In this document: in pieces, positions 31,004 through 31,218 of the stretch
Layout: each line of letters begins with the position of its first letter
Numbering within the stretch: the first letter of the stretch is position 1
From: Terracidiphilus sp.
GTDB lineage: Bacteria; Acidobacteriota; Terriglobia; Terriglobales; Acidobacteriaceae
DNA: 64,000 nt
Reading direction: 5' to 3'
Assembly: GCA_049521075.1 (NCBI GenBank)
Contig: JBEKPD010000003.1
Span: forward strand, 47,766 to 111,765
The notes under the pieces: generated by a model
What the model saw: the letters and a program-made list of their open reading frames with translations, nothing else
What the model was told of the DNA's origin: nothing
Database searches by the model: none
Program-made: the position numbers and the translations under genes

Positions 31004-31218
31004 TGTGAATAAATCTTTACACCAGATTGTGGAAAGGTGCCTCGGCGTGCAAAAGCGCCCAAAACGGGCGGCCTTTGCGACGCTCACTGCAGCTTGACAG
31101 GTTTACTGTTGAAAAACAATGAGTTAATGTGATTATCAGAAGGGGACAATCGCTGGCAAGGGGAAAAAACCAGGCTTTCCCCATGGCTTTCCGGAAGAAA
31201 TCCACAATTTTTTCCACA
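31004..31218. promoter_or_regulatory. Cluster of DnaA-box-like 9-mers in the convergent lepA-skp spacer
   Basis: TGTGAATAA 31004 (0 mismatches to TTWTNCACA, reverse), TGTGGAAAG 31028 (1), TGTTGAAAA 31107 (1), TGTGATTAT 31128 (2), AAATCCACA 31198 (2), TTTTCCACA 31210 (0). Confidence 0.5.
31049..31078 (+). terminator. Hairpin downstream of lepA, probable terminator
   Basis: GCAAAAG-CGCCC-AAAAC-GGGCG-GCCTTTGC. Confidence 0.5.

Follow-up and report, generated by a model that had tools for sequence, protein, structure and literature searches.

What does a cluster of DnaA boxes facing in opposed directions do in the gap between lepA and skp on a Terracidiphilus chromosome? It could be an origin of replication, a site that acts on DnaA from outside the origin, a set of operators, a target of some other protein, or a gene for a small RNA. 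A preliminary description of the locus favored either an orphan oriC or a titration locus similar to datA or to the Bacillus DnaA-box clusters (DBCs), and it named a small RNA as the alternative. To our knowledge, the control of DnaA by noncoding sites is understood almost only in Escherichia coli, with some work in Bacillus and Streptomyces, and we know of no study of replication control in Acidobacteriota.

DnaA boxes in the lepA-skp spacer

The window, by which we mean the whole 64-kb stretch of DNA that was analyzed, is part of contig C3 of a draft genome of 6.63 Mb (198 contigs, 58.7% GC), which the relatives of its LepA assign to Terracidiphilus, a genus of the family Acidobacteriaceae in the order Terriglobales. 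Gene calls gave a spacer of 311 bp with 52% GC, in keeping with the ~310-bp gap between convergent genes noted previously. It is bounded on the left by lepA (29161 to 30984, plus strand; EF4, with the Pfam domains GTP_EFTU and LepA_C) and on the right by skp (31296 to 32015, minus strand; OmpH family, Pfam OmpH); both genes converge on the spacer and serve here as context only. skp is the last gene of a bamA-x-x-skp-skp operon, and the GC-rich hairpin at 31250 to 31278 on the minus strand, which directly follows the skp stop codon and is conserved in the relatives' alignment, is its terminator and lies outside the DnaA element. Many relatives retain the order lepA-spacer-skp, with an identity of ~90% in LepA but of only 60 to 70% in Skp.

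A scan with the consensus TTWTNCACA found exactly two perfect matches in the window, both inside this spacer and both already pointed out in the preliminary description: TGTGAATAA (plus-strand letters) at 31004 to 31012 on the minus strand and TTTTCCACA at 31210 to 31218 on the plus strand. The spacer also has two to three one-mismatch boxes, including TGTGGAAAG (equivalent to CTTTCCACA) at 31028 to 31036 on the minus strand and AAATCCACA at 31198 to 31206 on the plus strand. Weaker boxes with two mismatches to TTATCCACA, namely TGTTGAAAA at 31107 and TGTGATTAT at 31129, fall in a patch of 24% GC. Read on the plus strand, the left boxes take the form TGTG.. and the right boxes ..CACA, and positions and orientations agree with the earlier account of four left boxes opposed to two right ones. 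The AT-rich patch, the TTGACA at 31094, and the hairpin listed there are present as well.

Three of the boxes are referred to below as L (31028 to 31036), R1 (31198 to 31206), and R2 (31210 to 31218). L has the core TGTGGA.A and R1 the core TCCACA; R2, a perfect consensus match, stands in tandem to R1 after a 3-bp gap. In the window, L lies 161 bp from R1, and L through R2 cover 191 bp. Two further conserved parts lie in between. The first is a central AT-rich block at 31109 to 31141 (TTGAWAAATAAGGAGTTA ... TATCAGAA; 33 bp, 24% GC), in which several relatives have an imperfect GATAAA/TTTATC inverted repeat and where a second, DNA-bending protein may bind. Inspection of this block and of the alignments found no E. 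coli IHF consensus (TAAnnnnTTGATW/WATCAAnnnnTTR). The second is a TTGRCAAG/GGCAAR block followed by an A-rich run, at 31153 to 31169, whose columns are conserved and whose GGCAAA recurs in other genera.

The 6.63-Mb genome has 160 perfect boxes, a number at which ~1.2 pairs within 300 bp would be expected; 2 were observed. When the spacer was shuffled, at least two perfect boxes arose with a probability of 2e-4 (mononucleotide shuffles) to 7e-3 (partial dinucleotide shuffles), while two perfect plus three near-perfect boxes appeared in 0 of 5,000 shuffles. By combined box score, the lepA-skp locus ranks top genome-wide, with 7 versus 5 for the runner-up. The box count by itself exceeds chance only modestly, and we judged the element significant because it is conserved, not because of this count.

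Conservation and autonomy of the element

In an alignment of the spacer from 17 genomes, mean column identity was 52% overall, but 21 columns were invariant, and these make up the left-box TGTGGA.A and the tandem right pair TCCACA ... T.TCCACA. The distance from the first base of L to the last base of R2 was 191 to 193 bp in 17 of 17 genomes, including those of two other genera with unrelated interior sequence. Across other genera, the span was 189 to 201 bp in 19 of 20 matched cases (the remaining case measured 241 bp), and the gap between R1 and R2 was constant at 3 bp in the genera compared. Conservation thus holds for L, R1, and R2 (17 genomes, ~50 genera) but not for all of the boxes first described: the perfect box at 31004 is lineage specific, occurring in the alignments only in G000, G017, and L071, that is, in the closest relatives, and the two weak boxes in the AT-rich patch are not conserved in the relatives' alignments.

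Genomes were searched with a model of the element built from sequence only. Of 151 genomes sampled in the family, 52 were positive, and 51 of these had one copy each, across 49 genera; in an order-level sample, one copy was found in 69 of 69 positive genomes, all of the same family except for one weak partial hit. Genera carrying the element number ~50 in Acidobacteriaceae; those coded g63, g66, and g128 include isolates with complete genomes. The model recovers it in roughly one-third to one-half of the sampled family genomes, and since its sensitivity is limited, absence from a given genome is uncertain.

Where the boxes vary, the substitution is at W, at N, or at an edge of the DnaA consensus. 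In relatives, the left box TGTGGAAAG is replaced by TGTGGATAA, TGTGGAAAC, or TGTGCAAAA, all differing at degenerate or edge positions, and the right boxes alternate between TTTTCCACA and TTATCCACA. The two arms change independently, for example, with TGTGGATAA on the left and TTTTCCACA on the right, with no compensation; therefore, the inverted boxes behave as protein sites and not as the arms of an RNA stem.

This bears directly on the idea that the element is a structured small RNA (e.g., 6S-like, ~190 nt) with ends held together by base pairing of the inverted boxes. The constant length of ~191 nt, termini able to form a stem of 7 to 8 bp, and folding-energy z-scores of about −2 would fit such an RNA. 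RNAalifold, however, yielded only the invariant box-box pairing, without compensatory change; A/T changes in the boxes disrupt that pairing rather than covary; interior folds vary between genomes; and both strands score alike. An Rfam scan of 29000 to 33000 at a permissive threshold returned no family, with a best score of 30.6 bits against a threshold of 270 bits, and the subthreshold alignments fell mainly on the terminator hairpin region (31250 to 31278). The small RNA that had been placed between TTGACA at 31094 and the terminator at 31250 loses its footing with these results, as that TTGACA is not conserved and the hairpin belongs to skp. We regard a small RNA as most improbable.

About a dozen genera retain the element with other genes in place of one or both of its flanking genes. 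The lepA flank is kept in most genera and is missing from some that still carry the element, and the substitute neighbors include gyrB, dnaB, cmk, and an RNase R-like gene. Given this persistence after flank replacement, the element is not a regulatory appendage of lepA or skp. What the spacer holds is best described as an autonomous, single-copy DNA element of ~200 bp. At two loci, L168 (in G146) and L176 (in G058), the element adjoins a replication gene, gyrB at one locus and dnaB at the other. An anti-sigma-factor-like open reading frame (ORF) of 243 amino acids with an HC2 zinc-finger motif (HxxxCxxC) near its N terminus lies between lepA and the element (L006:1792-2523) in the closest relative, G017, where the element remains on the skp side.

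Operators or sites for another protein

The boxes could be operators through which DnaA acts as a transcription factor, either on an unannotated transcript from a minus-strand promoter (TTGYCA-16-GATAnA) or on read-through from lepA or skp. E. coli DnaA regulons with tandem boxes are known, and a promoter-like match, TTGCCA-16-GATAAT, formed by the TTGRCAAG/GGCAAR block and TATCAG, does occur on the minus strand at 31159 to 31132; its −35 hexamer (TTGCCA/TTGTCA) and a TTCTGATA stretch are conserved. The −10 hexamer, by contrast, lacks the conserved final T in most relatives, and neither a conserved RNA structure nor an ORF was found downstream. Moreover, the flanking genes are convergent, the element outlives the replacement of either, and the boxes lie 70 to 100 bp from the putative promoter on both sides. 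We therefore consider operators quite unlikely. A plus-strand match, TTGAAA-16-GATTAT, was set aside, as it is restricted to G000.

It is also unlikely, in our estimate, that the TGTGGA/TCCACA motifs are bound by a different protein, such as an Acidobacteriaceae factor for chromosome organization or segregation, and resemble DnaA boxes by coincidence. Strict invariance is indeed limited to cores of 6 to 7 bp, the conserved AT-rich and GGCAAR blocks are not DnaA-like, and organizing sites, too, are typically single copy at a fixed chromosomal position. Against this stands the pattern of variation, which follows the DnaA consensus (W as A or T, N as C or G, T-rich flanks), as well as the recurrence of the same motif throughout the region upstream of dnaN. 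A canonical DnaA is present in the genome (544 bits to TIGR00362), and palindromes of the parS, matS, and NBS types were unmatched on inspection.

Position relative to the chromosomal origin

The locus might be the chromosomal origin itself (an orphan oriC) or a second or auxiliary origin that unwinds at the AT-rich block. It is the top DnaA-box cluster of the genome, its core has 24% GC, and it is single copy; its opposed outer boxes, ~190 bp apart, recall R1 and R4 of E. coli oriC. gyrB or dnaB stands alongside it in two genera, and a weak minus-to-plus skew change brackets it in G145. Nonetheless, GC skew in the genomes that could be read places the origin elsewhere.

In the window's draft genome, skew change points occur on most contigs, so GC skew on these contigs is uninformative by itself, and the skew test rests mainly on other genera because Terracidiphilus skew is patchy. 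As far as it goes, an 80-kb stretch of uniformly positive skew surrounds the element. In G000 and G007, the sign of the third-codon-position GC skew is unchanged from one side of the element to the other over tens of kilobases; for the latter, a complete genome of the same genus, a contiguous 400 kb was read. The earlier impression that no GC-skew flip could be seen is borne out for the window's genome and G007. Since skew in G007 alternates in sign many times genome-wide, that genome is otherwise uninformative on the origin. The skew patterns suggest that Terracidiphilus chromosomes undergo frequent large inversions. Within the 400 kb of G007 (L051 to L070, C1:5.16-5.56 Mb), the only sharp switch in third-codon skew, from plus to minus, is at dnaA (5.32 Mb), 35 kb from the element, and genes diverge from the switch point. 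Its sign is opposite to that expected of an origin, and we read it as a rearrangement boundary.

G072 (3.69 Mb), in which skew was sampled for 20 kb in every 61 kb, gave the clearest profile. From 3.23 Mb round to 1.48 Mb, skew was negative or close to zero apart from two small positive samples; between 1.52 and 3.2 Mb, all samples except two were positive. The switch, and with it the skew minimum (1.484 to 1.525 Mb), falls between the sample ending at 1,484,000 and the one starting at 1,525,001. dnaN is located there (1,492,487 to 1,493,602, i.e., at 1.4925 Mb), the element 0.54 Mb off at 949,405 (0.949 Mb), and dnaA at 1,907,730. In G169, dnaA and dnaN are adjacent at 2.685 to 2.688 Mb, within the minus-to-plus interval, and a weak match to the element is 1.1 Mb off. 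In G145, the terminus lies at 2.63 to 2.87 Mb and the opposite point at ~0.33 Mb, with dnaN (0.215 Mb) and dnaA (0.275 Mb) close by; the element maps to 4.505 Mb, where one positive skew sample at 4.54 Mb leaves some ambiguity. Gene-strand bias was left out of the origin inference because it was uncorrelated with skew in four genomes, and a search for Firmicutes- or E. coli-type dif sites to mark the terminus gave nothing usable.

At the locus itself, the boxes are directed away from the AT-rich block, and a run of DnaA-trio repeats was not visible at the element by inspection, in line with the preliminary description, which had found none clear. The distance from the element to dnaN is never <28 kb, and the region upstream of dnaN has a box array of its own. 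The element thus has the cluster of DnaA boxes that an origin has but does not lie at the GC-skew minimum, and an origin at this locus is very unlikely. The orphan-oriC proposal gives way to the skew minimum at dnaN in G072, with which G169 and G145 agree, and to the boxes upstream of dnaN.

In the window's genome, dnaA is located beside rpmH on contig C18, dnaN on contig C1, and the element on C3, which accords with the earlier statement that neither gene is nearby. Upstream of dnaN (C1:106570-107320) is a noncoding region of 0.8 kb with box-like motifs in a single orientation. Relatives' dnaN loci were drawn from metagenome contigs (L281 to L360), and in 64 related contigs the region showed at least six conserved box-like motifs, among them CTGTG.A, CTTTTCACA, CTTTGCACA, TTTTCCAAA, TTGCACAG, and GTTTTCCACG, as well as a T-rich tract that is likewise conserved. 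A T-rich-plus-CCACA motif is common to the element and this candidate origin, and no motif of the latter fits the consensus better than the boxes of the element do. Based on sampled skew in three genomes and on motif conservation, we are fairly confident in placing the family's origin upstream of dnaN and in concluding that dnaA has left the vicinity of dnaN in many of the genomes examined. The separation between dnaA and dnaN ranges across the family from about 0.2 kb to several megabases.

Among 31 genomes with the element and dnaN on one contig, their distance was 28 kb to 1.43 Mb, mostly 0.25 to 0.62 Mb, with a median of ~0.5 Mb. In 14 one-contig genomes, it amounted to 0.04 to 0.24 genome length (median, ~0.11), which puts the element always in the origin-proximal half of the replichore and never at the origin. 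Because the genomes are related, these statistics do not amount to a formal probability, and the conserved distance may come partly from shared synteny rather than from selection. The orientation of the element relative to fork direction was not conserved across the genomes compared.

Comparison with known DnaA loci

In E. coli, datA and the DARS loci have conserved relative positions and a transcription-free setting (PMC5010248, PMC5742627), and it matters at these sites how the boxes are oriented and spaced, that a bending-protein site lies between them, and where on the chromosome they are found (PMC5742627, PMC8682772, PMC5010248). Like datA, the element is a noncoding cluster of DnaA boxes (~180 to 260 bp) outside oriC, set in a gap downstream of convergent genes, where through-transcription should not occur, and at a conserved, origin-proximal relative position of ~0.1 genome length (PMC5742627, PMC5010248). 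Also as in datA, a candidate bending-protein site lies between the boxes, with a spacing that is optimized in datA and conserved here. The geometries differ, however. The essential boxes 7, 2, and 3 of datA have a common orientation, on either side of a consensus IHF site, whereas in the element one box opposes a tandem pair ~160 bp off and the IHF consensus is absent. Nor do the two share sequence homology, and they come from different phyla.

Like DARS1 and DARS2, the element is a non-origin cluster of three boxes, one opposed to two, with conserved spacing and chromosomal position, and its nonbox blocks bring to mind the extra nucleoid-protein sites of DARS2. Unlike the DARS core, in which the opposed boxes I and II are adjacent (head to head), the element has its opposed box ~160 bp from the pair, and the pair is head to tail. 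Because it shares neither the datA nor the DARS geometry, we treat the element as a new architecture within the non-origin DnaA-box control loci and not as a homologue of either.

The DnaA-box clusters of Bacillus subtilis and Streptomyces are titration sites and have more boxes, without a rigid, deeply conserved geometry. The element resembles both in having intergenic consensus boxes away from oriC, an arrangement thought to sequester DnaA (the Streptomyces cluster is among the references of PMC5742627). It differs from them in having three conserved boxes only, strictly spaced, and additional conserved nonbox blocks.

The outline of the element, with a leftward box at the left edge and rightward boxes at the right, is also that of the DnaA-oligomerization region of E. 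coli oriC from R1 to R4. In oriC, R1 to R4 span approximately 190 bp. Yet a flanking unwinding element is not apparent here, interior arrays of low-affinity boxes are absent, and the element lies off the skew minimum, unlinked to dnaA or dnaN.

Proposed role in the control of DnaA

With a probability that we put at roughly 0.55, the element is a non-origin locus that binds and controls DnaA, similar in role to datA and DARS with the geometry of neither. Its support includes the degeneracy of TTWTNCACA that box changes obey on the left (TGTGGAAAG/TGTGGATAA/TGTGCAAAA) and on the right (TTTTCCACA/TTATCCACA) and a spacing that is held while the interior diverges; as a counterpoint, datA and the B. 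subtilis clusters have more boxes than the three conserved here. The datA/DBC-like locus of the preliminary description survives in part: the conserved consensus boxes, the single copy, the convergent gap, and the origin-proximal position stand, and the datA geometry does not.

Such a locus most likely helps control the timing of replication start. We infer that DnaA binds the element, that a partner protein acts at the central block, and that initiation is affected, in one direction or the other. In outline, the high-affinity, consensus-like boxes would recruit DnaA, while the AT-rich and GGCAAR blocks are probably bound or bent by a nucleoid protein. Bending at the central block would bring DnaA bound at L and DnaA bound at the right pair together into a defined complex, which would either sequester DnaA or alter its nucleotide state. 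Since it lies ~0.1 genome length from the dnaN origin, the element would be duplicated early in each round, and this early duplication would raise the capacity of the locus just after initiation, helping to prevent reinitiation.

A more specific and more tentative version, which we regard as possible though doubtful, is that the element works as a decoy origin. It would offer the outer geometry for DnaA oligomerization (opposed boxes ~191 bp apart and a bendable core) without an unwinding element and so would assemble an initiation-type DnaA complex that does not fire, buffering or inactivating ATP-DnaA after each initiation. If true, this would be a third architecture for the control of DnaA, beside datA and DARS.

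Implications and other box-like sequences

Whatever its action on DnaA may be, this is a delimited element of ~200 bp with three invariant boxes at fixed spacing, single copy and origin proximal, in ~50 genera of a major soil phylum, and it offers a concrete target for work on replication timing in slow-growing soil bacteria. The comparison also yields evidence that the Acidobacteriaceae origin stays with dnaN while dnaA has relocated in many of the genomes examined. For origin predictors that rank loci by DnaA-box score, the locus is a caution, as the best-scoring locus in this genome is not the origin.

Elsewhere in the genome, perfect boxes are paired at one site only, C10:82656-82683, where two copies of TGTGGATAA form a direct repeat, 19 bp apart, in the divergent gap upstream of smc; this pair may reflect control of smc by DnaA. 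Three further apparent clusters from a first scan with the 7-mer core turned out to be an unrelated GAAACTGT repeat. Iteron-like tandem units of GAAACTGT occur beside CGCATCCACACAG at at least three loci (C175:200-290, C161:120-215, and C32:9416-9500), where this repeat may mark the ends or replication sites of a mobile element.
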